Notes: generated by a model not told the origin, from the letters alone. Shown: positions 40,961 to 63,849, counted from the first letter of the stretch. The stretch: 64,000 nucleotides of DNA from an uncultured Gammaproteobacteria bacterium (GCA_964361785.1 CAYIBX010000002.1:21160-85159), one strand, 5' to 3'. Made by a program: numbers and translations.

Positions 40961-41203
40961 TCATTTTGGTTTGAATTGAGCCATGAATGTATGAATATCT
41001 TTTTTTGTACGTAATACTGTTCCTCGTCCCGCTTTATAATCTGCTTTTGCCTCAGCTACCATGCGATCGAGTTTGTGATCACGAAGAATCTGACGTAATG
41101 CAGTACGAGCTAGATCGCTAAACGACGCATAGTGCCCATCTGCAATAGCTGCATCAGCTTCTTTTTTGAGAACGTCTGGAAGAGAAATGTTTATAGTAGT
41201 CAT
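40961..41203 (-). CDS. Ribbon-helix-helix (ParD/CopG-like) antitoxin. The probable start is the internal Met (MTTINISLPDVL...); the track ORF extends to 41221
   Basis: A beta-strand followed by a helix, INISLPDVLKKEADAAIADGHYASFSDLARTALRQIL, typical of RHH antitoxins. It is an 80-86 aa protein immediately upstream (3 nt gap) of the RelE-like toxin. Confidence 0.55.
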   Translation of the reverse strand: MTTINISLPDVLKKEADAAIADGHYASFSDLARTALRQILRDHKLDRMVAEAKADYKAGRGTVLRTKKDIHTFMAQFKPK

Positions 41204-43436
41204 ATGTATGAATAATAGCAAAAGTCATACAAAGTGTCAAAGAGACGAAAAGAAGAAGTTTTTTAAGCATCGAAGGCTCGTAGGAAAAAACGATCTCTTG
41301 TGTGCCGGCTGATTCTAACTTTACTGCAGTGTAGAAAGGGAAAACGATAAGCGTTTCCGCGGATTTCCCATCAATCGTTGCCTTCCAAGACGGGTGATAG
41401 GTCTGGTGGAGAATGACGAGGCACTCGGAACAGCCTTCTTTAGCCTCGACAGTGGCGCGGAAGACCATATCGCTATCTTGCGACTGGGAGGTTATTTTCA
41501 TTAGGTCACCTAAGTTACCTAGGGGGCTTAGGTAAAGAGGGGGCTCAGAAAAAAGATTGTGCCGAGTACCATCAGGAATTTGATACGTCACCTCGTCTAT
41601 CATTCGAAAATTTGGGAGTCCAGTGTTTTTGGGATAGTCTTTATCAAAAGTGAGTTTTGGGTATAAGCCTTTGGTATGTGTGTCTGATTGGATCCATAGG
41701 CGGACGACGTTGGTAAAATTTTGTTTGGAGCTGGAGATGATGGCTGGACGAATGCCTGTGGAGATATACCCATACGATAGGTTACCTATGTTGCCTAGGT
41801 GACTTGGGTCGCCTACATCAACAGTGTAAAGACGCCACGTTTTTCCGGTCATCAGAGGCTTCCAGAAGGGTTGGATGTTATCTTTGGGTAAATCGATAGG
41901 TGTCACGACATATTTTATATTGTAGAGGCGATAGTGGGCAGCTACATCTTCAGAAAAATACTGTTCGGTATCTGAATTTGGAGACCACGTTTCTGGAAGC
42001 CATGTAAGCGTCGGGATGCCAAAGGTAGACATATAAAGATACATTGGTGTTTCTGCTACGCGAAAATCTTTGCCCCACCCACCACCGCGACCAAAGTAAA
42101 CACGACTGGGATTAGTTTGTAGTTTATCGTTGATGGTTGAGAGTAAGAGAGAAGTATCGGCGTCAACGTTGGTAAAATTGTCGTTGGCTTGTTTGATAAG
42201 CGTATCGTTGTAGCTGCTGTATCGCAATGTTTGGGGGTAGACCGAAAAGATAAGAGATAAGACCAACAAGACACATAGGACTGATAAGACCAATTTGTTT
42301 AGTAATGTTGTTTTTTCAAAAATCCAATCAATTCCTATTGGGATTAAGAATAGCCCTGTGATATGGAGGCCCACGATAAAACGGGAAAGATGAAACTCTT
42401 CCATGCTGGGGATAAGGTTTACCAGTCCCCCCCATGTCGTACGGCCAAAGTAGAAAAGAAGCCAGAAGACAAACAAAATGCCAAATGCAAAATGCTGAAT
42501 GCTAAATAATGCAACAAATATGCCGACGAATACGAGAAGTGTTAGAATGGGGAAGCGGCTGAAATCAAATAGGTCGCCGTTAAAAAGATTTTTAAGCACT
42601 TCCCGATAGCCGTAGGAGTCAAATTTCCATATCGGATCCCAGACTGATATGTTGTGATAGTTGCTCCCAAGAAGAATAGGGATAATCCAGTATCCCAGAA
42701 GCAGTAAGACGCCGCCGTAAATAATAGGAAGTTTTTTTAGATGTTTGAATCCGACGATAGCAATACTAAAAAACGCTATGATTCCGATTCCCAGATGTCC
42801 TGTTGTCGTGAGGGCAAGGGTGAGTATTGCAGGCTTTATTTTTCCACGAAATGCATACGCTATTGCCAAAGGCAACCAAATCATAGCAAAAAGTTGACTC
42901 GAGAGGCCATATCCACGCCACAGAAATGATGCAGGATCTAATCCATATAACCCATCTGTGGAAAGATGGGACGCGATGAGCGCGCCGATACCTGCAGAAA
43001 TCCAAGAGAGTCCGATGATACGAAGTGCAACAAAAAGAGATAAAGGGAAAAGACAAAGCAAGAGATAGATCACGTAGTGATAATATTGAAAGAGCGATCC
43101 AAAGTGAAAAATGCGCCATGATGCGACTATGGTTATTTGGGGAAGGTGTGAGTAATAGTAGGGGAGGTTATAACCTTGTGCCCAGTTGGGGACCCAGTGG
43201 TCTGTTAAGTAAGAGAGTGAACAGAAAATAGTAAATAGTGAATGTGGACAGGTTTTGTTTGCAAAGTCCCATATTTGGTTTGTCCTATAAACGAGAGCGT
43301 ATTGAAACGTATTGTCATTTGGATCTAGTTTGGCTGTGGGCTCCTGTCGATATGTCCATAGGTTAAACCCAATGGCAAAAAGAACCATAATAATGCCAAT
43401 AAGTCTCATTAGTTTTATGTGTCCAATAGGTCTCAT
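41154..43436 (-). CDS. Large polytopic membrane protein with a C-terminal extracytoplasmic domain (GT-C-type / YfhO-like putative glycosyltransferase). Possible starts are 43496, 43436 or 43409
   Basis: Many hydrophobic helices in the N-terminal 420 aa are followed by a roughly 350 aa soluble domain. The N-terminus, MRPIGHIKLMRLIGII, is itself built from the 9-bp repeat family. Starting at 43436 leaves a 4 nt gap to the upstream gene stop at 43441. Confidence 0.45.
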   Translation of the reverse strand: MRPIGHIKLMRLIGIIMVLFAIGFNLWTYRQEPTAKLDPNDNTFQYALVYRTNQIWDFANKTCPHSLFTIFCSLSYLTDHWVPNWAQGYNLPYYYSHLPQITIVASWRIFHFGSLFQYYHYVIYLLLCLFPLSLFVALRIIGLSWISAGIGALIASHLSTDGLYGLDPASFLWRGYGLSSQLFAMIWLPLAIAYAFRGKIKPAILTLALTTTGHLGIGIIAFFSIAIVGFKHLKKLPIIYGGVLLLLGYWIIPILLGSNYHNISVWDPIWKFDSYGYREVLKNLFNGDLFDFSRFPILTLLVFVGIFVALFSIQHFAFGILFVFWLLFYFGRTTWGGLVNLIPSMEEFHLSRFIVGLHITGLFLIPIGIDWIFEKTTLLNKLVLSVLCVLLVLSLIFSVYPQTLRYSSYNDTLIKQANDNFTNVDADTSLLLSTINDKLQTNPSRVYFGRGGGWGKDFRVAETPMYLYMSTFGIPTLTWLPETWSPNSDTEQYFSEDVAAHYRLYNIKYVVTPIDLPKDNIQPFWKPLMTGKTWRLYTVDVGDPSHLGNIGNLSYGYISTGIRPAIISSSKQNFTNVVRLWIQSDTHTKGLYPKLTFDKDYPKNTGLPNFRMIDEVTYQIPDGTRHNLFSEPPLYLSPLGNLGDLMKITSQSQDSDMVFRATVEAKEGCSECLVILHQTYHPSWKATIDGKSAETLIVFPFYTAVKLESAGTQEIVFSYEPSMLKKLLLFVSLTLCMTFAIIHTYDYYKHFSSRRSQKRS
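41501..41537. repeat. In-frame 9-bp-periodic repeat copy (TTAGGTCACC TAAGTTACC TAGGGGGC TTAGGTAAAG) inside CDS 41154..43436
   Basis: Tandem degenerate 9-mers of the TAGGTNNCC / TAAGTNNCC type, read directly from the sequence. They encode ...SPLGNLGDLMK... on the minus strand. Confidence 0.5.
41777..41816. repeat. In-frame 9-bp-periodic repeat copy (ATAGGTTACC TATGTTGCC TAGGTGACT TGGGTCGCC TAC) inside CDS 41154..43436
   Basis: Four consecutive 9-mers matching TAGGTNNCC. They encode ...HLGNIGNLSYG.... Confidence 0.5.
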
Positions 43437-43440
43437 ATGA
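43395..43440. repeat. Repeat-derived sequence (CCAATAAGTCTCAT ... CCAATAGGTCTCATATG) that forms the N-terminal codons of CDS 41154..43436 (MRPIGHIKLMRLIGI)
   Basis: Two direct copies of CCAATARGTCTCAT. The ATAAGTCT / ATAGGTCT cores match the family seen elsewhere in the window. Confidence 0.4.
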
Positions 43441-45276
43441 TTATGGAAACAGTTTTGGATTGAGCCAATCCGTATGGTCATCAGTATTGCCGTCACCAGC
43501 GTCGGTCGTTTTCAGGGTAAGATTGGTTATCCCCGACACGTTGACACTCGTATGTTTCGGCAAATCAAACCGTCCCATTTTTTTTGACTGAAAAAGAAGT
43601 TTGTCATCCCCATAAATTTCAAAAATTGCCGATGCTTTGGTGCCTGATTCAGTGTCTATGCCGAAATCCGTTTCAAAGCGGGTAAAATTTTTGTTGATAT
43701 TGTATGTATATTTTGAAGGAGCATGCGAGCCCAAACCAGTGTTATAAAATGCATATTGTACGGATAATCGCGTCCAGCTATTTGGTCCTCCAAACGAGCT
43801 TTGGACCGTGCGATTAGTTTGTCTGGTGCCGTAGCTTTGTTCACTTACATACGGCGTGAGTGAGTTTAACGAAATAGGTTTTTTTGTGAATAACGGCAGG
43901 TTAAGAAAGATTAGCCCTCCTGTTATTATACTAACTGATAACAGTAAACAGTTAACCGTTAACCGTGAAGATTTGATGAGTGTGAAAAGAAAGACTCCAA
44001 AGAGCCCAAGAAGAACAAACGATGTGGTGATCGTGAAAATTGGCCCAGTAAGAAGGGACAGAAAGGGAATACCATTATTGGGATAGTTGACCACAAGCGC
44101 GGTATGTAGGTTGTAGAAATACAATACGGTAAATATTGAATAAAAGATAATAAAAAGTTTTTTATTGCGTATAAATGGTGCCCAAAGGAGGAGAAAGACA
44201 GAGAGCGGGAACGCGTAGCGGTCGTGGGATTGCGTTTGGAAAAGAAAAAAGCTCGCGTTTATGATGATGATGCCTTCAAGAAAGGTTTTTAATAGGACTA
44301 ATTTGTCTAATTTGACTGATAAGGCTAATTGGCGTATTACCGCGAATAAATAGAAACAAGAAAATAGTAGGAGCCCGACGGTTTTCGCATTCACCATACC
44401 GATGACGCTTAATTTATCTGAAGTCGCCATGCCTTTGGCCCCTGTGACGATCCACCAGAGGTTATACGCGTTTAAACTCATCCACGGGAAGTAATCGTAA
44501 TTTTCGGTAAGGGATGCAAAAATACGATCAGCATTTTTGGTAAGAATAAATTCGATGTTTAATCCGACAAAGCTTGTGAGAGCGCCGGCAATTGTTTGAA
44601 TTAAAAATTTGAAACCGCCATATTGGAACGCAAAAAGAAAAAAGAGGGGCGCATAAATCATGTTTTGCAGTTTCGTCATCATAGAAAGCATGAAGATGAG
44701 ACCTGCGACAAAGGACCAACGTTTCAGTAACGCAAGGAACGCGAGTAAGAAAATAAAAAGTCCCACACTATCCACCTGTCCCCATACAGCTCCATCGATG
44801 ATTGAAATGGGGTTTAGTAAATATCCAATACTCAATACCCAATATCCAATGGAGGGCACGGTGGGAAACCCTAGTTCTTTTGTATTCTTTCCTATATAGA
44901 GAATAATCCCTGCGATACCTATGTCAGCGAGTATGGGAAAGAGTTTGCTAATGGTAAGAAACAGAAGATTGGTATTTTTCCAGAAATCATTAAATATGTG
45001 GGGATCTTTAAAGAAGCTGTATAGTTTGACCATCGCTCCTAAGCTATACGCAAACGGCGTAGGGTAGTTATTATTCGTTGCCTTCATGCCCTCCACAATC
45101 CCTTTGTCGTATGTGGCTAGCCCCCATGATTTCCAAAACGAAATATCCGCTTCAAAGCCAGGGTTGGGGATGAGGGCTAAGCGAATGATTATCGCGAGAA
45201 CAAAGAGTAAACTGTAAATTGTTAACTGTTTCTTATCGCGCATGATTCTATCATACGAAATATGGTGCGCCTCCAC
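43441..45276 (-). CDS. GT-C fold membrane glycosyltransferase-like protein (PMT/ArnT-like) with a C-terminal NPCBM-like carbohydrate-binding domain
   Basis: A polytopic N-terminal region carries a first-loop acidic motif (PGFEADISFWKSWG). The C-terminal approximately 110 aa (FEIYGDDKLLFQ...VSGITNLTLKTTDAGDGNTDDHTDWLNPKLF) resembles NPCBM / F5-8-type lectin modules (D..DW.nP.L). Confidence 0.45.
   Translation of the reverse strand: MEAHHISYDRIMRDKKQLTIYSLLFVLAIIIRLALIPNPGFEADISFWKSWGLATYDKGIVEGMKATNNNYPTPFAYSLGAMVKLYSFFKDPHIFNDFWKNTNLLFLTISKLFPILADIGIAGIILYIGKNTKELGFPTVPSIGYWVLSIGYLLNPISIIDGAVWGQVDSVGLFIFLLAFLALLKRWSFVAGLIFMLSMMTKLQNMIYAPLFFLFAFQYGGFKFLIQTIAGALTSFVGLNIEFILTKNADRIFASLTENYDYFPWMSLNAYNLWWIVTGAKGMATSDKLSVIGMVNAKTVGLLLFSCFYLFAVIRQLALSVKLDKLVLLKTFLEGIIIINASFFLFQTQSHDRYAFPLSVFLLLWAPFIRNKKLFIIFYSIFTVLYFYNLHTALVVNYPNNGIPFLSLLTGPIFTITTSFVLLGLFGVFLFTLIKSSRLTVNCLLLSVSIITGGLIFLNLPLFTKKPISLNSLTPYVSEQSYGTRQTNRTVQSSFGGPNSWTRLSVQYAFYNTGLGSHAPSKYTYNINKNFTRFETDFGIDTESGTKASAIFEIYGDDKLLFQSKKMGRFDLPKHTSVNVSGITNLTLKTTDAGDGNTDDHTDWLNPKLFP
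44821..44850. repeat. Unrelated in-frame short direct repeat (ATATCCAATACTCAATACCCAATATCCAATGG) inside CDS 43441..45276, encoding SIGYWVLSIGYLLN
   Basis: Direct CCAATAYYCAATA repeats seen in the sequence. The peptide repeat SIGY(W/L)(V/L)L is visible in the translation. Confidence 0.4.
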
Positions 45277-45284
45277 TAGTGTCG

Positions 45285-46079
45285 TTATGCAGGTTTTTTG
45301 GCGTATGGTGATATGCCTAAATCACGCAATTGCTTTAAGTCATGTACTCGATTGACGAGCAAATTATCAATTCCTGATAATATATGAAACGTCGAATGTA
45401 ACTGTTCGTTTGTTGGTTCTCTTATGTATGGTGATCCATCTGGATTTTTGGCAGATTCTAGAAATGACGCAAGAATTTGATCTTCTATTTGATGATTTTT
45501 TTGGCTTTTTCCTTGCCCAAAGCGATAATTGTATTTAAGTATCGTAATAGTGAGGAGTTTATCAAGAGGAATACCCAGTGCACTGGCTATTTCTTCCATG
45601 TATTGGGTGTAGGCCAAAGGCGCTAATTTATCAAGTGAGGTGAGATTTGCCAAACAATAGATGACGTCACTTATCTCGTTTATAGGTCCAATTTTGGATG
45701 GTGCGGGCAGATTGCGCTCATGGTTATCAGCATAGGTTTCAAACCAGCTGCTGATTGAGCTAAATGCTTCCGGTATTTCTCCTAATTTGGGTGAGGGATC
45801 TTTGGGTTTGGTGATGTAGCGGGTGTGTATCGGAAGGCCGTCAAAGTCTACGGCTTTGGTCACATCTTTTAGCTTGCCGCCCGTCAGAAATTGGATTTTT
45901 CCTTCCGGTGCAATTTGGGGAAGCCCATGAATTTCTCGAAGATATTTGTGTTCTAACGATAACGCATGATTTGCGAGCCAATCGAGCTTATCTTCCTTGC
46001 TTATTGAGAGGACATCGAGGTTAAACCGAAGCTGTTCGTAGGGCACGTGTACAGGTGTAATTTCAGGCATACTCATCAA
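45285..46079 (-). CDS. Hypothetical soluble protein of 264 aa
   Basis: A long ORF packed inside a same-strand operon with 8 nt and 31 nt gaps. I recognise no motif. Confidence 0.5.
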   Translation of the reverse strand: MMSMPEITPVHVPYEQLRFNLDVLSISKEDKLDWLANHALSLEHKYLREIHGLPQIAPEGKIQFLTGGKLKDVTKAVDFDGLPIHTRYITKPKDPSPKLGEIPEAFSSISSWFETYADNHERNLPAPSKIGPINEISDVIYCLANLTSLDKLAPLAYTQYMEEIASALGIPLDKLLTITILKYNYRFGQGKSQKNHQIEDQILASFLESAKNPDGSPYIREPTNEQLHSTFHILSGIDNLLVNRVHDLKQLRDLGISPYAKKPA

Positions 46080-46110
46080 GTATAAAGTGTAACAGATTTA
46101 CTATAGGTTT

Positions 46111-47637
46111 TCAAGGATATAATTCTACTTTGTACACTATTAAATAGTCTGTTTCTTTGACTGGCTCAAGGTATGATATCTGTTTGAGATTCGTTTGCCA
46201 AGAGTAGGCGATGATGTAGCGGATAGTATTGTTGATCAAGAATTCCTTTTGTTGTGCACTCGTCATCGTTTGATCGAAATACGCTTGCGCGTTGACATCT
46301 TTTTCTGAAGGGTGGATGGTGAGAAGTGGGTGTCCATTATAGCTTCTTTGACCCGTAAGGGCAGGAATTATGCTGTTATACGGCCAGAGTACAAGAAACG
46401 TATCAGATGGATTGCCTATGGTTGTCAGTGATGTCAAAAATTTTACGTCATCTTTTGAGAGGTACTCGTACGCATTAGCTGGGTTGAACTCAGTGGCAAG
46501 GAGGAGAGTTTGCATGTGATTAGGAAGTAAAAGAGTGGTGAGAAAGAGAGTAAGTGCAAAAAATAGAATGCGAGGAAAGCGGCGTTGTATTGCGTACAAT
46601 CCTTCTGTGGCGATACATGAAATACAGAGAATAGTAAGGGTAGACATAAAGCGAATATTGGTGAGATGAAGCATTTGCGGAATTGGCGACATAAGAAAAG
46701 TTAGAGACAAGAGAGCGAAAATGAAAATAATGAGCCGTTCATACGTGCGTTTCGAAAGAAAGATGTACAGACTAAGGAGTGCGATGATAAAGATGGGCCC
46801 CATAGCAAGGAAAAAACCTGTGATCTGTAAAGGTACTTGCTGACTTGCTTCCCAAATTTTTAATTGAGAAAAAGGAAGTGTGGAAAATATTTTATTCAGG
46901 TAGATTGCCGCAGGAAGGCCGGAGAGCATGAGAATAAGAGTGGGAAAGATTGATCGACGTTTGATAAGAGAAACGATTCCACAAGAGGCTGTGACAAGAA
47001 GCCATAAAACAGGCTGCAGGCTTGCTAATAAGAATGCAGATAGCGCCATAAGCAGCCGTTTTTTTTGTAGGAGAAGTGAGAGTGTAAAGACTGAGAGAGT
47101 ATTGAGGAGTAATTGGTGTGGTACGCCGCCAAACCTTACACGAGGAACAGAAAAATTGTTCCAGTAGTCAGCGTACGTCCAGTGATTGTCGCGAAAGATT
47201 GGAAAGGCATGATAAAGGACAAAGAGAACAAGGGAGAGGAGTGCCTTGTGTTTGTCTTTCAAAATAAGGAGAGCTAATTTGTATGCGGAAAGACACAAAA
47301 GAAAGGTCCATATGGCGATGCTTATCTGATAGGCAGGAATGGCAGGTATACTTAAGAGCCAAAAAAGGTGGCCGGTGAGCACATTTGACCAACCCACAAA
47401 GGTGTCAGGCGTTATTTCTGACGTATAAAGGTTTGTCGTGGTAAGCCATCGAGTCGCACCCTGTGTAAATTGTGATAGGTAGTAGAAGTAGTCATTGGGG
47501 TGGTGCACAGTGCCTAAAAAGACTGCATTGGCAGGAGTTTGTTGAAAGCCCATGATACTTGGAAGTATATTTTCAAGGGTTGCCACAAGAGAGATGATGA
47601 TGACAAGAAAAAGGTGCATACAATCACATTGTCGCAC
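46111..47637 (-). CDS. Polytopic membrane protein, member of a three-paralog family in this window (with 49025..50662 and 56446..58056). Putative GT-C-type glycosyltransferase
   Basis: About 12 predicted hydrophobic helices. The three paralogs share an N-terminal motif H(H/Y)xxDYxFYLSxIxxGxxGxWxxxxxYTSE (here VHHPNDYFYYLSQFTQGATRWLTTTNLYTSE). The true start may be the internal Met at 47619. Confidence 0.5.
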   Translation of the reverse strand: MRQCDCMHLFLVIIISLVATLENILPSIMGFQQTPANAVFLGTVHHPNDYFYYLSQFTQGATRWLTTTNLYTSEITPDTFVGWSNVLTGHLFWLLSIPAIPAYQISIAIWTFLLCLSAYKLALLILKDKHKALLSLVLFVLYHAFPIFRDNHWTYADYWNNFSVPRVRFGGVPHQLLLNTLSVFTLSLLLQKKRLLMALSAFLLASLQPVLWLLVTASCGIVSLIKRRSIFPTLILMLSGLPAAIYLNKIFSTLPFSQLKIWEASQQVPLQITGFFLAMGPIFIIALLSLYIFLSKRTYERLIIFIFALLSLTFLMSPIPQMLHLTNIRFMSTLTILCISCIATEGLYAIQRRFPRILFFALTLFLTTLLLPNHMQTLLLATEFNPANAYEYLSKDDVKFLTSLTTIGNPSDTFLVLWPYNSIIPALTGQRSYNGHPLLTIHPSEKDVNAQAYFDQTMTSAQQKEFLINNTIRYIIAYSWQTNLKQISYLEPVKETDYLIVYKVELYP

Positions 47638-47680
47638 GTGAGTTTAGTCTTCACAATTATTTGAACGTATATCTGAATGG

Positions 47681-47724
47681 CTGCTACAAAATTTATACGC
47701 TATAGCGTAGAGATTTTGTAGCAG
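47681..47724. terminator. Nested hairpin. Outer 12-bp arms CTGCTACAAAAT / ATTTTGTAGCAG enclose an inner palindrome TACGCTATAGCGTA. It lies downstream (minus sense) of gene 47748..48419
   Basis: Both inverted repeats are read directly from the sequence. The element lies in the 110-bp intergenic gap between two minus-strand genes. No clear U-tract follows, so it could be a terminator, an RNA-processing site or a protein-binding site. Confidence 0.3.
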
Positions 47725-47747
47725 AAGATAGTGTCTTGAGTTCGAAA

Positions 47748-48419
47748 TTATTTCCAACTAACTGAATCAACGAGTTTATCAAATATACTCGGTTCAAAGA
47801 GTTTGCCACTGATCCAGATAATAAGATTACTATCCGTGGGCACTTCAAAAAAGACGTGGTCGTATGGAGTTTTTCCATTTTCATCAAGATACTTGGCTCG
47901 GTAGCCTTTTAGCCCCTGACTATTGGTAAAAGCTGTGACAGATGAAACGCCCGACCATCGGTAGTCTTTGTACCAGTTTTGGGCGTACTCCATGGGTTTT
48001 CCAATGTATTCTTTTTTGTTTATGGTCGTGAGATTTTCGACTCTGAAAAATAAATTTTCTTGCGGACTCGTATTGCCATAAAAGATTGTGACCCCATCAA
48101 ATGGATCATCGGTGAATACACCAAGGGAGAATGTTTTGGGATAAGAGAACGAGTAGGGAAATTGTTTGCCTTCATTGGTGGCCCACACGTCATCAGCGGG
48201 CACAGGGATAATGCGTGCTTCTAACCCTGAAAAGCGGATATCCGGCTTTCCTGCCGTAGGTGTAGGACCCAAGTATGTGCCGCCAGCCGGAAGGACAATG
48301 TTTCCTTGATTTTTCGTCGCATTTAAAAAAGAAAGAAAAACACCTGCGATAAGAATGACACTAATGATCAGGGCTGTTCCAATCGTTTTTGTATTCGGAG
48401 ATTCTTCCATATCATACAC
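47748..48419 (-). CDS. Hypothetical membrane-anchored protein (single N-terminal TM helix followed by a soluble domain)
   Basis: The hydrophobic segment IGTALIISVILIAGVFLSFL is followed by about 180 aa of mixed, aromatic-rich sequence. Its start abuts the stop of the upstream RmlC-like gene (48419/48420). Confidence 0.5.
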   Translation of the reverse strand: MYDMEESPNTKTIGTALIISVILIAGVFLSFLNATKNQGNIVLPAGGTYLGPTPTAGKPDIRFSGLEARIIPVPADDVWATNEGKQFPYSFSYPKTFSLGVFTDDPFDGVTIFYGNTSPQENLFFRVENLTTINKKEYIGKPMEYAQNWYKDYRWSGVSSVTAFTNSQGLKGYRAKYLDENGKTPYDHVFFEVPTDSNLIIWISGKLFEPSIFDKLVDSVSWK

Positions 48420-48980: not shown

Positions 48981-49024
48981 TATCCCAATTGCGCACCTTT
49001 AAAGTCAACTCCCATACAGATAGA

Positions 49025-50662: not shown

Positions 50663-50664
50663 CT

Positions 50665-54771: not shown

Positions 54772-54775
54772 AGGA

Positions 54776-56404: not shown

Positions 56405-56445
56405 ATGTATGAATGTATTAGCATGTTACCATGCTAATACGTGTG

Positions 56446-58056
<1,611 letters not shown>

Positions 58057-58105
58057 AGGGACATTGTATGCAATTTTTTTGTATCATGACAGTATGGGAG
58101 AACAG

Positions 58106-59611
58106 ATGAGAACAAAGTTTCTTGAAAGGGTGGCCATGTTTGTTAGCCTTTTGGTTCTTGGTGCGTTGTTGTGGTATACGCTCCAGTTGGGATTAGTGCG
58201 ATACTTTGACGCGGATGAATTGGCATATCTTCACTGGGCGCACAACGTATTTATAGGAGAGCGGCCGTATTATGACTTTTTTTCTTACGTGCCCAGTGGT
58301 TTTATGTATGTTTTGGCTCCACTTTTTTTGTTTGTCAAAGGTGCAGAAATTTTGACTCTAGCACGATGGTTTGCATTTTTGGTAGAGCTTGGGATGGTTA
58401 TATGTCTTATAGTGATCTATAAAAATTGGCGCGGATCCTTTTTTGGGATAGTAGCCGCGATAGTTTTTTTGTTTCTCCCAATTCCTCAAGACAAATTGAT
58501 AGAAGTACGACCTGATAATCTGGCGATGCTTATTGGGCTTATGGGGCTTATAAGTCAAATAAGACTTATAGAATTTCAAAAACAACGGAGTGCGTTTTGG
58601 GCGGGATTGTTTTATGGATTGTCCCTTATTATTCTTCCAAAGACCTTGCCGCACGTTGTCTTTGCGGCAGCCATAACATTGTTGTGGTGGCGTGAGGATT
58701 GGAAAAATCGCTGGGTGTATGTACGTGAGTTTATTGTGGGCGGTATAACGCCGGTTGTTGTATTTGTGCTGTTTCAACTGGTCACTGCAAAAAGTATGGC
58801 CGAGCTTAGTACGCTTCTTTATTCACTGACAAAGCTCCCCTTTGAAGTAAATAGAATTGCAGAACAGTTTTTCATGCAACCAGATTTATTTTTTTATCCT
58901 AATAGTATCTATTATGGCGTAGGGGGCGTACATGCAGGGCTTATCGCAAATCATGCTCTTTGGCTTCTGGGACTCCTGTTTGGCGTGTATAGATTGTTTA
59001 CCCCATTTGTGCCCAATGGGAAAAAGGGGATGTTTACAGAACTTCTTCTCTCCGGATCATTCTTTATTTACGTGGCAACGTTTATACTCTGGTATCCTAT
59101 GCGGCACGCGCAGTACCTTATCCCCATTGCGCTTTTTGTGTCCCTCTACGTTGCGGACGGGATAGAACAGGCATGGAAAAAAGCGAAAACGCATACAGTA
59201 TACAAAGGAGTTTTTTGGGCATTCAGTGTTGTGAGCATAGTGTTTGGTTGGCAAATTTACCTCACGGTAACCATGCCAAAAATGGCCATGACAAACAGAG
59301 AAGACATGCGTGTCATTTACCAGAGTCAACACATGATACCAAAGGAAAGTTATGTGTTGGATTTTGTAGGATCAACGATATATTTTCGTGATCCGTATTA
59401 TGTCAGTGCGCTTCCGTTTGGACAGTACCCTTCATATCTTTCGCGACCATTGCCAACACTAAGCCGTATTCTTTCTCACACAAATACCCCGTATATCTAT
59501 GAAGGGAGATTGGATCGTATGCAGACGTTGTCCATAGAGGACCAAGTGTATATTCGTATGCATTATATTCCTTTAGAAGCTACACACTTTTGGAAAGCGA
59601 AAGGATTATAG
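58106..59611 (+). CDS. GT39/GT83-like (ArnT/PMT family) membrane glycosyltransferase. The track ORF begins at 58064, but the start at 58106 is supported by a Shine-Dalgarno-like sequence
   Basis: The DE-loop motif FDADELAYLHWAHNV is typical of PMT/ArnT-type GT-C enzymes. GGGAG at 58096-58100 sits 5 nt upstream of the ATG at 58106. A start at 58064 would lie only 7 nt from the divergent gene start at 58056. It contains an in-frame repeat at 58529-58571. Confidence 0.55.
   Translation: MRTKFLERVAMFVSLLVLGALLWYTLQLGLVRYFDADELAYLHWAHNVFIGERPYYDFFSYVPSGFMYVLAPLFLFVKGAEILTLARWFAFLVELGMVICLIVIYKNWRGSFFGIVAAIVFLFLPIPQDKLIEVRPDNLAMLIGLMGLISQIRLIEFQKQRSAFWAGLFYGLSLIILPKTLPHVVFAAAITLLWWREDWKNRWVYVREFIVGGITPVVVFVLFQLVTAKSMAELSTLLYSLTKLPFEVNRIAEQFFMQPDLFFYPNSIYYGVGGVHAGLIANHALWLLGLLFGVYRLFTPFVPNGKKGMFTELLLSGSFFIYVATFILWYPMRHAQYLIPIALFVSLYVADGIEQAWKKAKTHTVYKGVFWAFSVVSIVFGWQIYLTVTMPKMAMTNREDMRVIYQSQHMIPKESYVLDFVGSTIYFRDPYYVSALPFGQYPSYLSRPLPTLSRILSHTNTPYIYEGRLDRMQTLSIEDQVYIRMHYIPLEATHFWKAKGL
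58529..58571. repeat. In-frame repeat copy (CTTATTGGGCTTATGGGGCTTATAAGTC-aaat-AAGACTTATAG) inside CDS 58106..59611, encoding LIGLMGLISQIRLI
   Basis: Direct GGGCTTATG units plus the inverted repeat ATAAGTC / GACTTAT. Confidence 0.5.
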
Positions 59612-59654
59612 ATTCAATTGTCTAAATGGAGAAAACGTCGTATCATACCGTGTA

Positions 59655-60371
59655 ATGACTACTCAACCGATTGCATTCTCTCTTATACTTCCCTGCTATA
59701 ACGAACAGAGGCTGATTAAGGAGAGTACAGAGAGAATTATGAGCGCACTAGATGCCGGCGCGTTTACATACGAGATTATTTTCGTGGATGATAAAAGTTT
59801 TGACAAAACAGCACAGTACATAAAAAAAATCTGTAAACGATATTCGTTTTGTCGCGCTGTATTTCACGAGACGAATATGGGACGCGGGAGATCGGTCATG
59901 GATGGGATCGCGAAAGCACGGGCCGAAATAGTAGGGTATATAGATATAGATTGTGAAGTGTCTCCTGTGTATTTGCCATTTATGGTCTCTCTCGTTACAG
60001 AAAAAAAGAGCGATGTGGTTATCGGAAAGCGTTTTTATCGTTCTACCTTAGGATCAATAATGAGGGAAGTGTTTAGTCGCGGGTATCGCTGGCTAGCAGA
60101 CACCATGGTAGAGACGGGAGGAGTAGATACAGAGTCAGGATTTAAGGTGTTTCGAAAGAAAAAAATTGTACCCATTTTTGAATCTATAGAGCATCAGGGA
60201 TGGTTTTGGGATACAGAAATTATGGTGTATGCCAAACGGGCGGGATTAAAAATATCAGAAGTGCCGGTACTTTTCCTTCGCCGGTTTGATAAACATTCAT
60301 CCGTCAATATAGTCAAAGATACAGTAGAATATCTTATACAGCTTATTCGGTTTTCTAGGTCGCTTAAGTAA
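59655..60371 (+). CDS. GT2 polyprenol-phosphate glycosyltransferase (DPM1/GtrB/ArnC-like)
   Basis: FSLILPCYNE, EIIFVDDKSFDKT, GRGRSVMDGIAKA and GYIDIDCEV correspond to the GT-A DxD and acceptor-loop motifs of Dpm1/GtrB-type enzymes. Such enzymes make the lipid-linked sugar donors used by GT-C enzymes. Confidence 0.75.
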   Translation: MTTQPIAFSLILPCYNEQRLIKESTERIMSALDAGAFTYEIIFVDDKSFDKTAQYIKKICKRYSFCRAVFHETNMGRGRSVMDGIAKARAEIVGYIDIDCEVSPVYLPFMVSLVTEKKSDVVIGKRFYRSTLGSIMREVFSRGYRWLADTMVETGGVDTESGFKVFRKKKIVPIFESIEHQGWFWDTEIMVYAKRAGLKISEVPVLFLRRFDKHSSVNIVKDTVEYLIQLIRFSRSLK

Positions 60372-60395
60372 CCTAGGTAGCCTAAGCGACCTATA
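60356..60395. repeat. Palindromic repeat copy spanning the stop codon of the GT2 gene and the whole intergenic spacer up to the start of the acetyltransferase gene (CTAGGTCGCTTAAG-taacctaggtagc-CTAAGCGACCTAT)
   Basis: A 12-bp inverted repeat AGGTCGCTTAAG / CTAAGCGACCT with one mismatch, and an inner CCTAGG palindrome. The TAA stop at 60369-60371 lies inside the element. The last six codons of the GT2 protein (RFSRSLK) are element-encoded. Confidence 0.55.
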
Positions 60396-60928
60396 TGAAA
60401 GCATTACAAACAATAGGTATTTGGCAGGCTTTGCGTTTTGTATGGTTTCAGTGGTATGGATTTCTCATCCACGTTTCTTTGCCGCCAGTACGTGTGTGGC
60501 TATTGCGATGGGCAGGAGCGACGGTGGGGAAGGATACTGTGATTATGGATGTACGGTTTGTCAATATCCATCAACACGGGTTTTCTCGACTTTCTATTGG
60601 GAACAGATGTTTTATAGGAGATGAGGCGATGCTTGATGTGAGAGGCGGTATACGCCTAGAGGATGATGTAACTATTTCAAATAGAGCGTCTATCGTGACG
60701 CATATAAACGTGGGGTTTCCTGACCATCCGTTGCAAAAAATGTATCCGATGAAGGAATCACATGTTTTGGTAAAAAAAGGTGCGTATGTAGCAACCGGAG
60801 TGATTGTATTGCCAAATGTTTCGATAGGGAAAGAGAGTGTGGTGGCAGCAGGGGCCGTCGTCACAAAATCAGTTTCTGATCATGTATTGGTAGCTGGTGT
60901 GCCGGCGGTGGTGAAGAAAAAGTTATAA
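60395..60928 (+). CDS. Left-handed beta-helix (hexapeptide repeat) acyl/acetyltransferase
   Basis: The C-terminal hexapeptide repeats VTISNRASIVTH...GAYVATGVIVLPNVSIGKESVVAAGAVVTKSV...LVAGVPAVV are typical of sugar O- or N-acetyltransferases (WbbJ/PglD/NeuD-like). Confidence 0.7.
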   Translation: MKALQTIGIWQALRFVWFQWYGFLIHVSLPPVRVWLLRWAGATVGKDTVIMDVRFVNIHQHGFSRLSIGNRCFIGDEAMLDVRGGIRLEDDVTISNRASIVTHINVGFPDHPLQKMYPMKESHVLVKKGAYVATGVIVLPNVSIGKESVVAAGAVVTKSVSDHVLVAGVPAVVKKKL

Positions 60929-60967
60929 TAGCATTATTCCTTCCAAAACTGCCTCATAAAAAATGCC

Positions 60968-61924
60968 ATGAAACCATATTTGTCTGTCATTATTCCCTAT
61001 TATAATTCTCCAGAAAAGTTGGAGAGACTTCTTCTATCAATTGCGAAAAGTAAAAAGGCGCTGCCATATGAAATTATTATTGTCGATGACGGCTCAATAG
61101 AAAAATTTAAAACAAAACTAAAAATTATTCGACTTCCTCATAATAAAGGTCCGGCAATTGCAAGAAATAGAGGGGTAGAAGCGGCAAAGGGAGAGTTTGT
61201 CGTGTTTTTGGATGGTGATGTAGAGGTGTTTGCCGATACCCTTTGTGAGATCGGCAAAGTATTTACTGATGACCCTGATGTGGTGGCTCTAACCGGCGTA
61301 TGGGTGAAGGAGCAACAGTCCAAAGATTTTTTCCCCAACTTTAAAGCGCTTCGGGATTGGAGTTACTGGATAAACGAGCGGGATAAAAGTGGGTATTATT
61401 TTCTTTTCTCTACGCGCATTGCAGCGATTAAAAAGGCGGTGTTTTTGCGTTTGGGTGGGTTTGATGAGACGTATCCAGCTCCACTAGTAGAAGATATAGA
61501 GCTCACGTATAGAATTGCGCGTCGATACGCAATAATTTTTGCGCCACAAGTGCGGGTTCGGCATGAATTCGAGAGTTTCTGGCCGATAGCAAAGAAATAT
61601 TTCTTACGAGCATACTACTGGACTAAGCTGTATACGAAGCGTAAAAAATTTGATCCGGTCGCTACCACGCTTGCTGAGGCCTTAACGACTCTATCTGGTG
61701 TAGGGGTAGTCCTTGTGTTTATAGGTTATCTAAGTCACCTAAGATACCTAGGTTACCTATGGGCGGTAGTGTTGGTGTTCCACATCCTCCTCGTGCGGAA
61801 ATTTTTGGTCTTTGTCTATCACGAAAAAGGATTGGTATTTATGCTCAAAAGTTTTGTGATCGGACTTTTTCTTTACTGTTTTATCTTTTCAGGCGTTTTG
61901 ATGGGGAAAATCAAGAGCCGTTAG
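60968..61924 (+). CDS. GT2 family glycosyltransferase with a C-terminal membrane segment
   Basis: LSVIIPYYNSPEKLERLLLSI, YEIIIVDDGS, LPHNKGPAIARNRGVEAAKGEFVVFLDGDV. Two hydrophobic helices at the C-terminus contain a 9-bp-periodic repeat copy (61721-61762). Confidence 0.75.
   Translation: MKPYLSVIIPYYNSPEKLERLLLSIAKSKKALPYEIIIVDDGSIEKFKTKLKIIRLPHNKGPAIARNRGVEAAKGEFVVFLDGDVEVFADTLCEIGKVFTDDPDVVALTGVWVKEQQSKDFFPNFKALRDWSYWINERDKSGYYFLFSTRIAAIKKAVFLRLGGFDETYPAPLVEDIELTYRIARRYAIIFAPQVRVRHEFESFWPIAKKYFLRAYYWTKLYTKRKKFDPVATTLAEALTTLSGVGVVLVFIGYLSHLRYLGYLWAVVLVFHILLVRKFLVFVYHEKGLVFMLKSFVIGLFLYCFIFSGVLMGKIKSR
61721..61762. repeat. In-frame 9-bp-periodic repeat copy (ATAGGTTATC TAAGTCACC TAAGATACC TAGGTTACC TATGG) inside CDS 60968..61924, encoding IGYLSHLRYLGYLW
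   Basis: Four consecutive TARGNNACC 9-mers. The outer ATAGGTTA ... TTACCTAT arms are near-inverted. Confidence 0.5.
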
Positions 61925-63849
61925 CGTAAGGCGCTTTTTGGCGTGGGAGTGGGCTTAGGTACTTTGGATTTGATGGTTTCTAGCTCAGTTTTGATGCGAG
62001 GGAGATCTGGGTCTGTGTCTTTTAAGAGACTCACCACTTTTTGCATAGTACGTGCTGCATTTTCGTATTCACCGACAGATTCGAGTAATTTGGAGAGATT
62101 GTAATACGCTGCCGGATAATCAGGTTTCATCTGGATAGCGGTTTGGAATTCAGCGACTGCACGATTTACATACGCTGATTGTGCTTCTTTATCTTTCGAG
62201 TTTGTGGCAAGTTGCACTAGTACAGAACCAAATTCGGTTCGTAACGTTGGGTTACTTCTGTCTAGAGCGATAGCTTGTAGATATGCATTGAGTGCCATTT
62301 GATCAGCGTCTTTGGTAATAGAAAGAAGATTAGCATAGACGTTAGCAAGATATTGCCACGTGCGCGCATCATGCGGACGAAGTGTAGTAGCAGTGTTGCC
62401 TTCAGAGATAGCGAGTGAGACGAGTTGGTTTATTTGTTGTTTTTCAATATCCGTAAGGTCGGATTTTTGTAAGAGGTTTGTAGCCAACGAGAGATTGACC
62501 TGAGAAAAAGATATGTGATAGTTGGTCATGGTGGGAACCAGTTGTACGGCTTTGAGACTGTATTTATAGACGTTGGTAGCATCTTTTTCTGATAGAGCAT
62601 TTTGGGCCTTCTGCATAGCATATTCTGCGCGGACATATTGTGTAAGGTAATATCCACAGTAACCGATAGCAACAAGAAGGATAAGAGAGAGTATGTAGCT
62701 TGTATTTTTTGGGATTTCGGTAGGTTTATTTCCTTGTGCCGTCAGAAGGCCGAGCGACACAAAGAAAAGTAGATACATAGGTACAGACCCTGATGAAAAA
62801 AAGAAGGTGAGTATCGAAAGTATAAAAACGACATTTATCGGTGTAAATTTAGATTTACTTATACTCATTTGTTTAAATCCTATGGCGAAAAGATAAAAAA
62901 ATGTTGCTGTACCGAGTAACCCCATAGTGGTAATCCACTGAAAGATTTCAGTAGTAGCTGAACTAGGAAGCACATTCCAAAATGGTGTGGCGTTTAAAAA
63001 CATCGGTTTTGCTGCTGTGTAGAGTGTGGAGAAGTTGGCTATCCCGACGCCAAAAAAGACGTTGTGAGCGCTTTTTAGTGCGTCAAGTGTTATATTCCAA
63101 GAGGCGCTAAAGGGAAGAATTGTCGTAGAGATAAAACCTTCAGTCGTTAAAAGATACACATGGATCATTGCCGTACCTAGCGTGAGAACGCTACAGGCAA
63201 ACGTGAGATACTTAAAAAGAGAAGATTTTTGATCCTTTGCTTTTATGAAAGCAACGATACTTGCGATAGTCAGTATACTCACGGTGATAAGTGGACTGCC
63301 GGTTGGGGTAAAGCCTTTGTTTTGCATGAAGCTTGGTAGCATAGTTAAACGGTAAAGAACAGCGAGCTGCAACATGCCGTGGATAGAAAGAAGGACGGAC
63401 GAGGCTATGATAGCAGTGATACAGCGTGATACGAGTTTTGTGGATTGGGGAAGTAAACTTAGGCAAAAACTGAGCACAGACAGTGCAATCAAAAGCGAGC
63501 CTAAGCCGATGATACTTTCAGTTCTTCCTTCAGGATTGAGCGAGAGATTCGTGATGATTGCTCCTCCAAAAAGGACGAGAGGAAGGCGAAGCGGTGATAC
63601 GCTTACAGGGACCGTTTGGTGTAACAGCATATCAAGAGTAAGTCCCACGAGGAGTATGAGGGAAATGGCGATGATAAATAGTTGCTTTGGTGTACCAAAA
63701 AAGTTTGTAAAAACAGGGAGAAAAAGAAGGGGAGTAATAAAAAGGGTGAGGGGAGTAAGGAATTCAACCAGCGTAACGGTAATAGATTTATTTTGCATGC
63801 CTGTTTTATCGTACAGAGAATACGAAAAAAACACAACATCTTTATCCAC
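61921..63849 (-). CDS. O-antigen ligase / Wzy-like polytopic membrane protein with a C-terminal TPR repeat domain
   Basis: The N-terminal roughly 400 aa contain about 10-12 hydrophobic helices. The C-terminal roughly 200 aa carry TPR-like repeats (e.g. AYLQAIALDRSNPTLRTEFGSVL..., AEFQTAIQMKPDYPAAYYNLSKLLESVGEYENA). Confidence 0.55.
   Translation of the reverse strand: MDKDVVFFSYSLYDKTGMQNKSITVTLVEFLTPLTLFITPLLFLPVFTNFFGTPKQLFIIAISLILLVGLTLDMLLHQTVPVSVSPLRLPLVLFGGAIITNLSLNPEGRTESIIGLGSLLIALSVLSFCLSLLPQSTKLVSRCITAIIASSVLLSIHGMLQLAVLYRLTMLPSFMQNKGFTPTGSPLITVSILTIASIVAFIKAKDQKSSLFKYLTFACSVLTLGTAMIHVYLLTTEGFISTTILPFSASWNITLDALKSAHNVFFGVGIANFSTLYTAAKPMFLNATPFWNVLPSSATTEIFQWITTMGLLGTATFFYLFAIGFKQMSISKSKFTPINVVFILSILTFFFSSGSVPMYLLFFVSLGLLTAQGNKPTEIPKNTSYILSLILLVAIGYCGYYLTQYVRAEYAMQKAQNALSEKDATNVYKYSLKAVQLVPTMTNYHISFSQVNLSLATNLLQKSDLTDIEKQQINQLVSLAISEGNTATTLRPHDARTWQYLANVYANLLSITKDADQMALNAYLQAIALDRSNPTLRTEFGSVLVQLATNSKDKEAQSAYVNRAVAEFQTAIQMKPDYPAAYYNLSKLLESVGEYENAARTMQKVVSLLKDTDPDLPRIKTELETIKSKVPKPTPTPKSALR

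Follow-up and report, generated by a model that had tools for sequence, protein, structure and literature searches.

A vertically conserved gene cluster in Gottesmanbacteria encodes nine GT-C-fold proteins and a candidate pathway for surface glycosylation

The 64,000-nucleotide stretch of DNA analysed here (the window), which comes from a tiny groundwater bacterium whose contig occurs in Hainich H43 samples, carries 17 genes at 41154..63849 (∼23 kb), nine of which encode polytopic GT-C-fold glycosyltransferases of four structural types: a YfhO-like pair, three proteins of PMT_2/ArnT type, an ALG/PimE-like protein that carries a CBM51 domain, and an STT3/AglB-like trio (Table 1; proteins are named below by their first coordinate). 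Considering their folds, family memberships, conserved loop acids, and conserved synteny, we think it likely that the cluster glycosylates a surface glycoconjugate step by step, outside the membrane and from polyprenol-phosphate-sugar donors. Neither the cluster nor its STT3-like protein family is described in the literature we searched on GT-C, OST, YfhO, and mannosyltransferase proteins in CPR, Patescibacteria, Microgenomates, and Gottesmanbacteria.

The original prediction for this locus, made from the sequence alone, was a cell-envelope glycosylation island with at least eight polytopic GT-C paralogs beside a giant protein. The ORFs it named are all real, and their positions are exact or off by a few codons; our ORF calls agree with gene calls on identical public contigs. 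The count holds, with nine polytopic GT-C proteins, but paralogy among them is demonstrable by BLASTP and hhalign only for the trio 46111, 48938, and 56446.

Table 1. Genes of the cluster and the neighbouring giant gene, with positions counted from the first letter of the window
Position	Strand	Feature	Remarks
210..40616	+	Giant gene	13,468 codons; ORF; convergent to cluster
41154..43496	-	YfhO-like GT-C	751-780 aa by start; called starts near 43409 or 43436
43441..45276	-	GT-C_B glycosyltransferase (GT87/ALG6/ALG3/PimE-like)	C-terminal CBM51 (NPCBM) lectin domain
45285..46079	-	Conserved soluble protein	264 aa; always between GT87-like and STT3-like genes
46111..47637	-	STT3/AglB-like GT-C, paralog A	502-508 aa
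47748..48419	-	Conserved single-pass membrane protein	223 aa; one TM segment
48420..48980	-	RmlC-like cupin, sugar-nucleotide epimerase type	PF00908 39.2 bits (cut-off 27)
48938..50662	+	STT3/AglB-like GT-C, paralog B	542 aa as called, from near 49034
50665..51417	+	SAM-dependent methyltransferase	Methyltransf_23 68.6 bits
51390..53435	+	YfhO-family GT-C	673 aa as called, from near 51414; ∼11 TM segments
53359..54771	-	PMT_2-type GT-C (GT39/GT83-like)	470 aa
54776..56404	-	PMT_2-type GT-C	542 aa; clearest PMT_2 member
56446..58056	-	STT3/AglB-like GT-C, paralog C	536 aa
58064..59611	+	PMT_2-like GT-C	DADE loop motif; weak match; start possibly 58106
59655..60371	+	Soluble GT2	Candidate polyprenol-phosphate-sugar synthase (Dpm1/ArnC/GtrB type)
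60395..60928	+	Hexapeptide-repeat acetyltransferase, WcaF-like	Hexapep 35.1 bits; WcaF subfamily 79.6, below cut-off
60968..61924	+	Second GT2	Three C-terminal TM segments (235-307); PF00535 94.1 bits
61921..63849	-	∼9-TM protein with C-terminal TPR domain	TPR match only

Gene content and conservation of the cluster

GC content is uniform across the cluster (0.40–0.43), and the comparison with related genomes that the original prediction had called for revealed conserved gene order in at least ten Gottesmanbacteria species whose proteins are 40–65% identical. Because composition is uniform and synteny vertically conserved, the locus is not an island; a horizontally acquired or mobile element is ruled out on these grounds, and the same sequence comparisons indicate a cluster that is vertically inherited and lineage-wide in Gottesmanbacteria, which belong to the Candidate Phyla Radiation (CPR). 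Each of the nine GT-C enzymes persists as its own orthologous group across at least ten species, which argues for nine distinct, non-redundant steps. Tracts of 9-bp and 7-bp repeats do not resemble phase-variable sites: no indels were found between 38001 and 57619 among five near-identical contigs from different samples.

The genes are spread over the two strands and form at least six transcription blocks, and a second locus arrangement in other Gottesmanbacteria (loci L018, L022-L027, L032, and L035) shares only part of the gene set, while one further locus (L039) keeps a GT-C gene pair without a giant neighbour. Such features would suit nine GT-C proteins that belong to no single pathway, serving unrelated envelope processes and lying adjacent through slow rearrangement of CPR genomes, with the giant gene unrelated. 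We judge this quite improbable, since a 13-gene order is common to the species representatives even at protein identities down to 35–60%, and since genes for donor supply and for tailoring lie scattered among those for the GT-C proteins.

The soluble GT2 (59655) had been predicted to be Dpm1/GtrB-like, and database matches agree. It matches PF00535 at 85.4 bits, and its best PDB match is the Dol-P-Man synthase of P. furiosus (5mlz, E 3e-12, residues 4–232), followed by ArnC (9e-9) and GtrB (1.4e-6); its top NCBIfam matches (PgfS, ArnC, AglJ, and PpgS) are all under their cut-offs (PgfS 65 vs 500 bits). No TM segment that could serve as a membrane anchor appeared in its hydropathy scan; eukaryotic DPM1 can also lack one.

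Pfam matches likewise bear out the predicted second GT2, RmlC-like cupin, SAM methyltransferase, hexapeptide acyltransferase, and NPCBM tail. Orthologs of the second GT2 (48–56% identical) are found where Gottesmanbacteria have the second locus arrangement. No gene of the cluster is more conserved than the cupin, whose orthologs are 74–88% identical; it scores 33 bits against TIGR01221, far under the equivalog cut-off. Genes of the RmlC-like, methyltransferase, and WcaF-like acetyltransferase kinds are typical of glycan loci.

Two further proteins are conserved without a family assignment. The 264-aa soluble protein (45285) has no Pfam, NCBIfam, or PDB match and has syntenic orthologs at 42–44% identity in at least nine loci; the 223-aa membrane protein (47748), with no family match, has syntenic orthologs 35–82% identical and is duplicated in locus L006. 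Synteny gave no functional hint for either. The ‘Wzy-like’ label given to the TPR protein (61921) was dropped, along with assignment to the Wzy/O-antigen ligase family (PF04932): the TPR part alone matches, neither its first 416 aa nor two orthologs match Pfam even at E ≤ 10, and hhalign detected no relation to the nine GT-C families. Among the 17 ORFs that reach 170 aa and a TA pair of shorter ones, we recognised no flippase of the GtrA, small MDR, MATE, or Wzx type in the window, nor was an initiating phosphoglycosyl transferase found there.

Families, folds, and loop acids of the GT-C proteins

Each of the nine large proteins is polytopic: a simple hydropathy scan, a crude measure that undercounts TM helices, finds 6–11 hydrophobic segments. 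At least one test of GT-C identity was positive for every one of them, and AF2 models of two show full GT-C cores. By sequence, several of these assignments are weak or transitive (the PMT_2-like 58064 and the C-terminal YfhO matches described below), and sequence searches of solved structures returned no match for the GT-C proteins except for the CBM51 tail of 43441.

A lack of conserved acidic loop residues had been named beforehand as evidence against the GT-C reading. Instead, a D or E in the first external loop (EL1) is invariant or near-invariant among orthologs in all nine families. These acids lie in ND in 41154 (part of an ND..FQY that is invariant in orthologs), in GDD in 51390 (kept in orthologs), in NID in 53359, in DY..WDF in 54776, in FD.DE in 58064 (invariant in 12 orthologs), at E31/D33 in 43441, and at D43 in the STT3-like trio.

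Both proteins predicted to be YfhO-like keep that name on C-terminal or transitive matches. The match of 51390 to PF09586 (32.8 bits, cut-off 28.5) covers model positions 756–835 of 835 only, and its last 80–90 residues also match PgfM1 and PgfM2 of NCBIfam weakly, far below the cut-offs (27 vs 1,400 bits). The candidate 41154, with at least ∼8 TM segments and another at its C-terminus, has no Pfam match itself; PF09586 is found in 39 of the 120 listed homologs (421 homologs in all), one of which is named as YfhO family, and hhalign relates the protein to the C-terminus of 51390 with 95.5% probability over 80 C-terminal columns, the only part that the two share.

The four proteins originally called PMT/ArnT-like fared differently when scored against PF13231 (cut-off 26.1 bits). 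The match is clear for 54776 (53.1 bits; orthologs 57–67% identical) and marginal for 53359 (27.2 bits; orthologs 27.3 and 23.2), whereas 58064 falls below the cut-off at 18.8 bits, with three of five orthologs scoring 31.9, 28.2, and 24.3. The fourth, 43441, is not PMT/ArnT-like and is better described as a GT-C_B enzyme (ALG/PimE/GT87-like) with CBM51. Both an HMM match and the fold place it in GT87/GT-C_B (PF09594; the fold of ALG6, ALG3, PIG-M, and PimE), its class being resolved only via the Pfam matches of orthologs and a structure model, and profile–profile comparison of ortholog alignments linked it to no other GT-C family. Its tail (aa 470–611) scores above the cut-off for CBM51/NPCBM (PF08305) and has the CBM51 fold.

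The trio 46111, 48938, and 56446 had been grouped by the motif H..DYxFYxSxIxxG, and it is indeed one family: BLASTP E values are 1e-16 for 48938 vs 46111, 2e-11 for 48938 vs 56446, and 4e-37 for 56446 vs 46111, and hhalign gives 100% for all pairs. The hhalign comparison extends to the PMT_2 protein 54776 (91.8% over 364 columns for 48938 and 93% for 56446). What the original prediction missed is the predicted fold, which is closest to STT3/AglB/PglB (GT66, PF02516) and includes the C-terminal OST-type extracytoplasmic domain. The likeness is confined to fold and C-terminal domain; no sequence similarity was detected, with no match to PF02516 and none at E ≤ 10 when the family profile was searched against the PDB. 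Chains of STT3, PglB, and the long AglB are also longer (683–867 residues vs ∼500–575 aa), and the trio's family occurs as 2–4 paralogs per Gottesmanbacteria locus.

Clustered at 50% identity, this family has 5,317 or more clusters, every named source being Patescibacteria, and no Pfam or NCBIfam model matches either the three proteins or 39 divergent members. Among 52 sequences, D43 (52/52), D151 (41/52), E257 (50/52), and R323 (52/52) are candidates for the catalytic set of oligosaccharyltransferases (an EL1 Asp, an EL2 acidic pair, an EL5 Glu, and an Arg). R162 and H168 are also invariant, and W256-E257, in a later loop, is near-invariant.

From the modelled fold, the trio could be read as true oligosaccharyltransferases that transfer a lipid-linked oligosaccharide en bloc to protein, with ALG-, PMT-, and Dpm1-like helpers, in an archaeal/eukaryote-style N- or O-glycosylation. 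The invariant EL1 D43, R162, and R323 and the near-invariant W256-E257 would fit such enzymes, as would the presence, in the same cluster, of an enzyme like ALG6/ALG3 and a GT2 like Dol-P-Man synthase. In oligosaccharyltransferases, however, WWDYG binds the +2 Ser/Thr of the sequon, and this motif is not conserved here: the family has W-P-Y/F-N at the candidate position (W in 39/52, P in 48/52), 46111 has WPYN, and 48938 (S-T-A-G) and 56446 (T-P-L-D) have nothing comparable. The failure to match PF02516 or any PDB chain, together with the absence of a phosphoglycosyl transferase or Wzx-type flippase from the window, also counts against this reading, which we consider improbable. The same low probability attaches to its wider form, in which the family would be a third bacterial lineage of true oligosaccharyltransferases and CPR bacteria would possess protein glycosylation of the archaeal/ER-lumen type, built from Dpm1-like, ALG-like, PMT-like, and STT3-like enzymes, with products coating surface proteins, among them those extracytoplasmic parts of the giant neighbour that may take part in host contact.

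Proposed pathway, acceptor, and known systems

For stepwise assembly of a surface glycoconjugate, the reading we favour, we infer the donor, step order, acceptor, and flippase as follows. In the cytoplasm, the soluble GT2 would load a sugar derived from a nucleotide sugar onto polyprenol phosphate, and the RmlC-like cupin may tailor the nucleotide sugar before loading. A flippase would carry the lipid-linked sugar across the membrane, where each of the nine GT-C enzymes would be responsible for a particular residue or linkage in the glycoconjugate. The CBM51 lectin of the ALG/PimE-like enzyme would hold the glycan acceptor, and the methyltransferase and acetyltransferase would add non-sugar decorations. 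GT-C density, the GT2, and the tailoring genes support the originally proposed decoration of the cell envelope, as extracytoplasmic glycosylation; the choice of the giant protein as ‘obvious’ substrate does not stand. Our tentative preference for the acceptor is a cell-envelope glycopolymer or lipoglycan, which seems somewhat likelier than proteins, the giant neighbour included, although these form a serious second possibility.

The giant protein has an N-terminal TM segment and four more hydrophobic clusters, Walker A/DEFD, DEGD, and three HExxH motifs, two ATPase-type modules, one a divergent SecA_DEAD (57.7 bits vs cut-off 24.6), and a weak GNAT match. Giant genes (7,176–13,555 aa) lie convergent to the [GT87+CBM51]-[YfhO-like] pair in ∼11 related genomes, their products being 26–34% identical in the C-terminal part; a conserved link of glycosylation genes with a giant SecA-domain protein was not found in the literature searched.

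In the Pgf system of Streptococcus mutans (PgfS, PgfM1, PgfM2, and PgfE), a GT2, a YfhO-type GT-C, and an epimerase are encoded beside their adhesin substrate. By analogy, the cluster might be dedicated to protein glycosylation, with the 13,468-residue neighbour as main acceptor: it too combines a GT2, a YfhO-type GT-C, and an epimerase beside a large protein, its top NCBIfam matches include PgfS (the best for the GT2) and, for 51390, PgfM1 and PgfM2, the convergent arrangement recurs in the window and ∼11 genomes, and the closest folds to the STT3-like trio are protein glycosyltransferases. The Pgf scores, however, are far under the equivalog cut-offs given above, and the neighbour is a multi-spanning 13-kaa protein rather than a wall-anchored adhesin. 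Convergent orientation means that giant gene and cluster are not co-transcribed, and locus L039 shows the gene pair without a giant. The protein is not Ser/Thr-rich (13.8% Ser+Thr) and has 0–8 NxS/T sequons per 500 residues. Its TM-cluster spacing and two ATPase-type modules suggest that large parts may be cytoplasmic and beyond the reach of GT-C enzymes. A dedicated system of this kind is therefore unlikely in our estimate. Adjacency, conserved in ∼11 genomes, is the one argument for an obvious substrate; being multi-spanning, SecA-like, and not Ser/Thr-rich, the giant protein is a possible acceptor, not an obvious one.

With its length of more than 13,000 aa, TM clusters, divergent SecA_DEAD, weak GNAT match, and mostly unannotatable sequence, it resembles the Omnitrophota giants (bioRxiv 10.1101/2023.11.21.568195), which exceed 7,000 aa and have several TM regions and a divergent SecA_DEAD. 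It differs in belonging to another phylum, in being shorter than the >30,000-aa cases reported there, and in lying next to a GT-C cluster, whereas many Omnitrophota giant genes are, according to the preprint's abstract, near type II secretion/pilus homologs. In term searches of the preprint, CPR appear in the introduction and references only, with no tie to giant genes.

Surface glycosylation from polyprenol-linked donors would relate the cluster to three-component systems (GtrA/GtrB/Gtr*, CsbB/GtcA/YfhO, ArnC/ArnE-F/ArnT, and GT136 of PMC11127046), with which it shares a GT2 paired with GT-C enzymes, an auxiliary epimerase, and a GT-C with a C-terminal carbohydrate-binding module, a substrate-binding arrangement with published precedent in a three-component system (PMC11127046). 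It departs from them in having one or two GT2 for nine GT-C, an unanchored GT2, and no flippase in the window. The GT-C arrays of mycobacteria (PimE/GT87, AftA-D, and EmbA-C, for arabinogalactan and lipoarabinomannan) are another close known system; the cluster differs in occupying one locus of a ∼1.2-Mb genome in a CPR bacterium and in its CBM51 fusion, and genes for decaprenyl-phospho-arabinose were not seen in it.

CPR/Patescibacteria account for much of the diversity of bacteria and live attached to other cells. Cluster and giant gene together take up ∼63 kb, or ∼5% of a ∼1.2-Mb genome as judged from related near-complete contigs, and the way of life of these bacteria therefore probably depends heavily on the surface structure that results. 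With the galactose-type specificity of CBM51 domains, the acceptor glycan of the CBM51 fusion is predicted to carry a galactose-type epitope. The STT3-like family is large and invisible to curated annotation, and D43, R162, H168, E257, and R323 offer mutable handles on it; if its members are protein glycosyltransferases, OST-type enzymes would be far more widely distributed among Bacteria than now known.

GT-C enzymes of the cluster

Seventeen genes fill 41154..63849, and nine of the 17 products are large polytopic proteins (genes are referred to by coordinates or start position). The ORFs of the original prediction are present, and independent gene calls on identical public contigs concur. 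Pfam gave the matches listed in the table and none for 41154..43496, 46111..47637, 48938..50662, and 56446..58056, to which NCBIfam likewise added nothing. Orthologs of 58064 reach 24–32 bits on PMT_2 in three of five cases. The majority of the 421 homologs of 41154 are >50% identical to it; PF09586 is precomputed for 39 of the 120 listed, one bears the name "YfhO family protein", and the ortholog profile of 41154 matches 51390 at 95.5% probability over the C-terminal 80 columns, the link between these YfhO-like proteins being confined to their C-termini. A lack of conserved acidic loop residues had been named in advance as evidence against GT-C identity; acidic residues are kept among orthologs in the first external loop in all nine families. 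The nine large proteins are GT-C enzymes of four structural types.

Features of the cluster and its surroundings
Feature	Coordinates	Strand	Evidence or description
Giant ORF	210..40616	+	13,468 codons
NPCBM domain	C-terminus of 43441..45276		Pfam
Conserved soluble protein	45285..46079	-	264 aa; always accompanies cluster
Conserved single-pass protein	47748..48419	-	223 aa; always accompanies cluster
RmlC-like cupin	48420..48980		39.2 bits
SAM methyltransferase	50665..51417
YfhO	51390..53435		Pfam 32.8 bits, solely over final 80 model positions
PMT_2	53359..54771		Pfam 27.2 bits (cut-off 26.1), marginal
PMT_2	54776..56404		Pfam 53.1 bits, clear
PMT_2	58064..59611		Pfam 18.8 bits, sub-threshold
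Soluble GT2	59655..60371		Solved relatives: Pyrococcus Dol-P-Man synthase closest (nearly full-length match at E 3e-12), then ArnC, GtrB
WcaF-like hexapeptide acetyltransferase	60395..60928
Second GT2	60968..61924		Three C-terminal TM segments
TPR-domain membrane protein	61921..63849		~Nine TM segments
9-bp motif sites	42257-42294, 43387-43445, 49916-49954, 51759-51815, 52386-52424, 55254-55300, 55433-55492, 58528-58575, 63934-63959

The enzymes had been described as eight paralogs. Three of them (46111, 48938, and 56446), which share an H..DYxFYxSxIxxG motif, are truly paralogous (BLASTP E 4e-37, 1e-16, and 2e-11; hhalign 100%), but BLASTP found no similar pair among the nine outside this trio, so that the description was overstated. 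Profile comparison remotely links the trio to the PMT_2 protein 54776 (92–93% probability over 278–364 columns) and, weakly, the three PMT_2-type proteins to each other (48–61%), with no relation of 43441 or the TPR protein to any other family.

The trio belongs to a very large family: an exhaustive profile search recovered at least 5,317 cluster representatives with E ≤ 1e-3 as the limit, 1,310 of which also pass E ≤ 1e-30. All 89 homologs from a word-indexed search are unnamed and lack a Pfam domain, Pfam matched none of 39 divergent members (22–26% identical to the query) at E ≤ 0.01, and the family profile has 0 matches to PDB sequences even at E ≤ 10. The AlphaFold model of 46111..47637 is very confident (pLDDT 96.3, pTM 0.93), and, independently, Foldseek ranks 1–7 are oligosaccharyltransferase (OST) catalytic subunits (E 8e-9 to 1e-7, query TM-score 0.52–0.60). 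To the invariant or near-invariant residues the first external loop contributes D43, Y44, and Y47; the others are R162, P167, H168, W256-E257, and R323. Conservation does not extend to WWDYG, the hallmark of OSTs: members of the 46111 group carry W-P-Y/F-N, and 48938 and 56446 have nothing comparable. Given the Foldseek ranking, the missing sequence match, and the unconserved hallmark, we describe the family as STT3/AglB-like in fold and do not assign it to GT66; AftA, which glycosylates polysaccharide, is nearly as close to the model as the OSTs in the membrane core.

Conservation and gene content of the locus

A scan of species-representative genomes, examined by tblastn with the window proteins, yielded 27 loci (L-numbers below). 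The order 58064-56446-54776-(53359)-51390-(methyltransferase)-48938-RmlC-47748-46111-45285-43441-41154 is kept in at least ten species (L008, L011, L013-L017, L026, L028, L029, L036), with GT-C identities of 40–67%, and a more distant 1.22 Mb genome (L006) carries a rearranged version at 31–49% identity. A second Gottesmanbacteria group (L018, L022-L025, L027, L032, L035) has a different locus, comprising two to four STT3-like paralogs and a 58064-like gene, together with a 60968-like GT2 in 7/8 and a 61921-like TPR gene in 6/8. The nine enzymes fall into nine separate orthologous groups; the duplications are therefore old and the copies not redundant. GC content is 0.40–0.43 in the cluster, inside the window range of 0.38–0.46, and thus does not set the region apart. 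Uniform composition and an order conserved across at least ten species argue against the "island" of the original prediction, and on this comparative evidence the cluster is a lineage trait.

The accessory set proposed earlier (a Dpm1/GtrB-like GT2, a second GT2, and RmlC-like, methyltransferase, hexapeptide acyltransferase, and NPCBM functions) agrees with the family matches. The best NCBIfam models for 59655..60371 are PgfS, ArnC, AglJ, and PpgS, each under its cut-off. The cupin is the most conserved cluster gene (74–88% ortholog identity), and family searches with 61921..63849 matched the TPR domain alone and nothing in its membrane part, so that the "Wzy-like" label proposed for it stays putative. 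Neither a flippase nor an initiating phosphoglycosyl transferase was recognised among the 17 genes of 41154..63849. Synteny of the 264-aa and 223-aa protein genes is as strict as that of the glycosyltransferases, and the 223-aa gene is duplicated in L006; the two products may be hitherto unrecognised pathway subunits or chaperones.

Relatives have envelope genes added beside the cluster (L039 11800-13932, L008 16901-17740, L037 8495-9418). Their products are a protein of DUF2298, itself a GT-C-like family, a peptidase of LysM/M23 type, and, encoded between the YfhO-like and giant genes, a PIG-L deacetylase.

Contigs identical to the window come from Hainich groundwater assemblies (well H43, 0.1 and 0.2 µm filter fractions), and all named relatives of its proteins are Patescibacteria, most of them Candidatus Gottesmanbacteria. 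Several species-representative MAGs titled "uncultured Gammaproteobacteria" carry the Gottesmanbacteria-type cluster (L010, L013, L018, L019, L021, L023, L026, L028, L031), with 30–82% identity to the STT3-like query protein. Their gene content marks these records as CPR bins with titles that are almost certainly wrong.

A periodic 9-bp motif (ATAAGACCN, counted together with its complement) occurs 15 times (≤ 1 mismatch) versus 1.24 expected: 13 of the 15 lie within 42284 to 58569, one in the giant gene, and one just beyond the cluster (63937). Inverted pairs are frequent (51777/51795; 55452-55489). The motif translates as IRP, IGL, or IGP tripeptide repeats, which fall in the loops of several membrane proteins that are not related to one another. 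In orthologs these loops are hypervariable and the motif is absent; among five near-identical contigs its length does not vary. Heptanucleotide tandem tracts also occur at 55216-55250 (AAGAGTA x5, inside a PMT_2 gene) and 57414-57452 (AAATGAC x5.6, inside 56446..58056). Such tracts could give rise to frameshift switching; the three near-identical contigs that span both have no indels there.

The giant neighbouring gene

The giant ORF ends 538 bp from the stop codon of 41154..43496, in convergent orientation. At the corresponding position the identical contigs also have a giant gene (13,413 aa), as do relatives (12,315, 9,454, 13,555, and 7,176 aa), and in eight species loci stop-free frames of >1,100 codons run past the locus end there, six of the eight having 26–34% identity to the C-terminal 1,500 residues of the window giant. 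In L039, the GT87-YfhO pair is present without a giant neighbour.

About 95% of the giant protein's length has no Pfam match. It contains an N-terminal TM segment (aa 50-68) and further hydrophobic clusters (~3604-3635, 3797-3840, 7601-7641, and 12894-13035). Walker A and DEFD motifs form one module at ~aa 2113-2245; SecA_DEAD scores 57.7 bits at ~aa 8936-9280, where P-loop_SecA and Helicase_C also match weakly. HExxH occurs three times (aa 4305, 12300, and 13359), and GNAT gives a weak match. Multiple TM segments, SecA_DEAD, and the weak GNAT match fit the published account of the Omnitrophota giants, in which multi-TM architectures, divergent SecA DEAD domains, and GNAT acetyltransferases are common; in a term search of that account, CPR bacteria figure in the introduction and reference list alone and are not tied to giant genes (10.1101/2023.11.21.568195).

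Cysteines concentrate in the N-terminal 1,500 and C-terminal 470 residues, and the topology signal from where these Cys-rich parts lie conflicts with that from the placement of the ATPase modules. GT-C enzymes work on the outer side of the membrane, which limits any glycosylation of the giant to its extracytoplasmic segments. Conserved adjacency makes a functional link between giant gene and cluster plausible, but calling the giant an "obvious substrate" was too strong, given the convergent orientation, the ATPase modules, and a Ser+Thr content of 13.8% without Ser/Thr-rich regions.

The interval from the giant gene to the cluster contains two ORFs of 86 codons each, 40697-40957 (-) and 40961-41221 (-), which form a candidate type II toxin-antitoxin pair; one resembles a YafQ/ParE-like toxin (22.4 bits) and the other an RHH/ParD-like antitoxin (22.1 bits), both sub-cut-off. 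In L008 and L037 this place is taken by a PIG-L family deacetylase, and L038 has a HicAB pair, there upstream of the NPCBM gene.

Proposed glycosylation pathway

The enzyme classes are known already, and we claim no new chemistry. Three features appear to lack a description in the searchable literature: a very large GT-C family of CPR bacteria that is unmodelled and has an OST-like fold; the gathering of nine GT-C enzymes, representing four types, at a single conserved locus in a ~1.2 Mb genome; and the conserved place of this cluster beside a giant SecA-domain gene.

GT-C enzymes use polyprenol-phosphate-linked donors at the extracytoplasmic face, a pattern common to the Gtr, CsbB/YfhO, ArnC/ArnT, mycobacterial Emb/Aft/PimE, and ER ALG/PMT/STT3 systems. 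By analogy, the cluster probably serves extracytoplasmic glycosylation fed by polyprenol-P-sugars. The GT2 59655 would load sugar onto polyprenol phosphate, the lipid-linked sugar would be flipped across the membrane, and each of the nine GT-C enzymes would make a transfer of its own to a surface glycoconjugate. The CBM51 could hold the glycan acceptor for the GT-C_B enzyme 43441, a GT-C with a substrate-binding CBM being documented in the three-component GT136 system (PMC11127046). Methyl and acetyl decoration would follow. Within this mechanism, a wall glycopolymer or lipoglycan is our tentative assignment for the acceptor, with proteins somewhat less likely; were proteins the acceptor, the giant neighbour is unlikely to be the main one.
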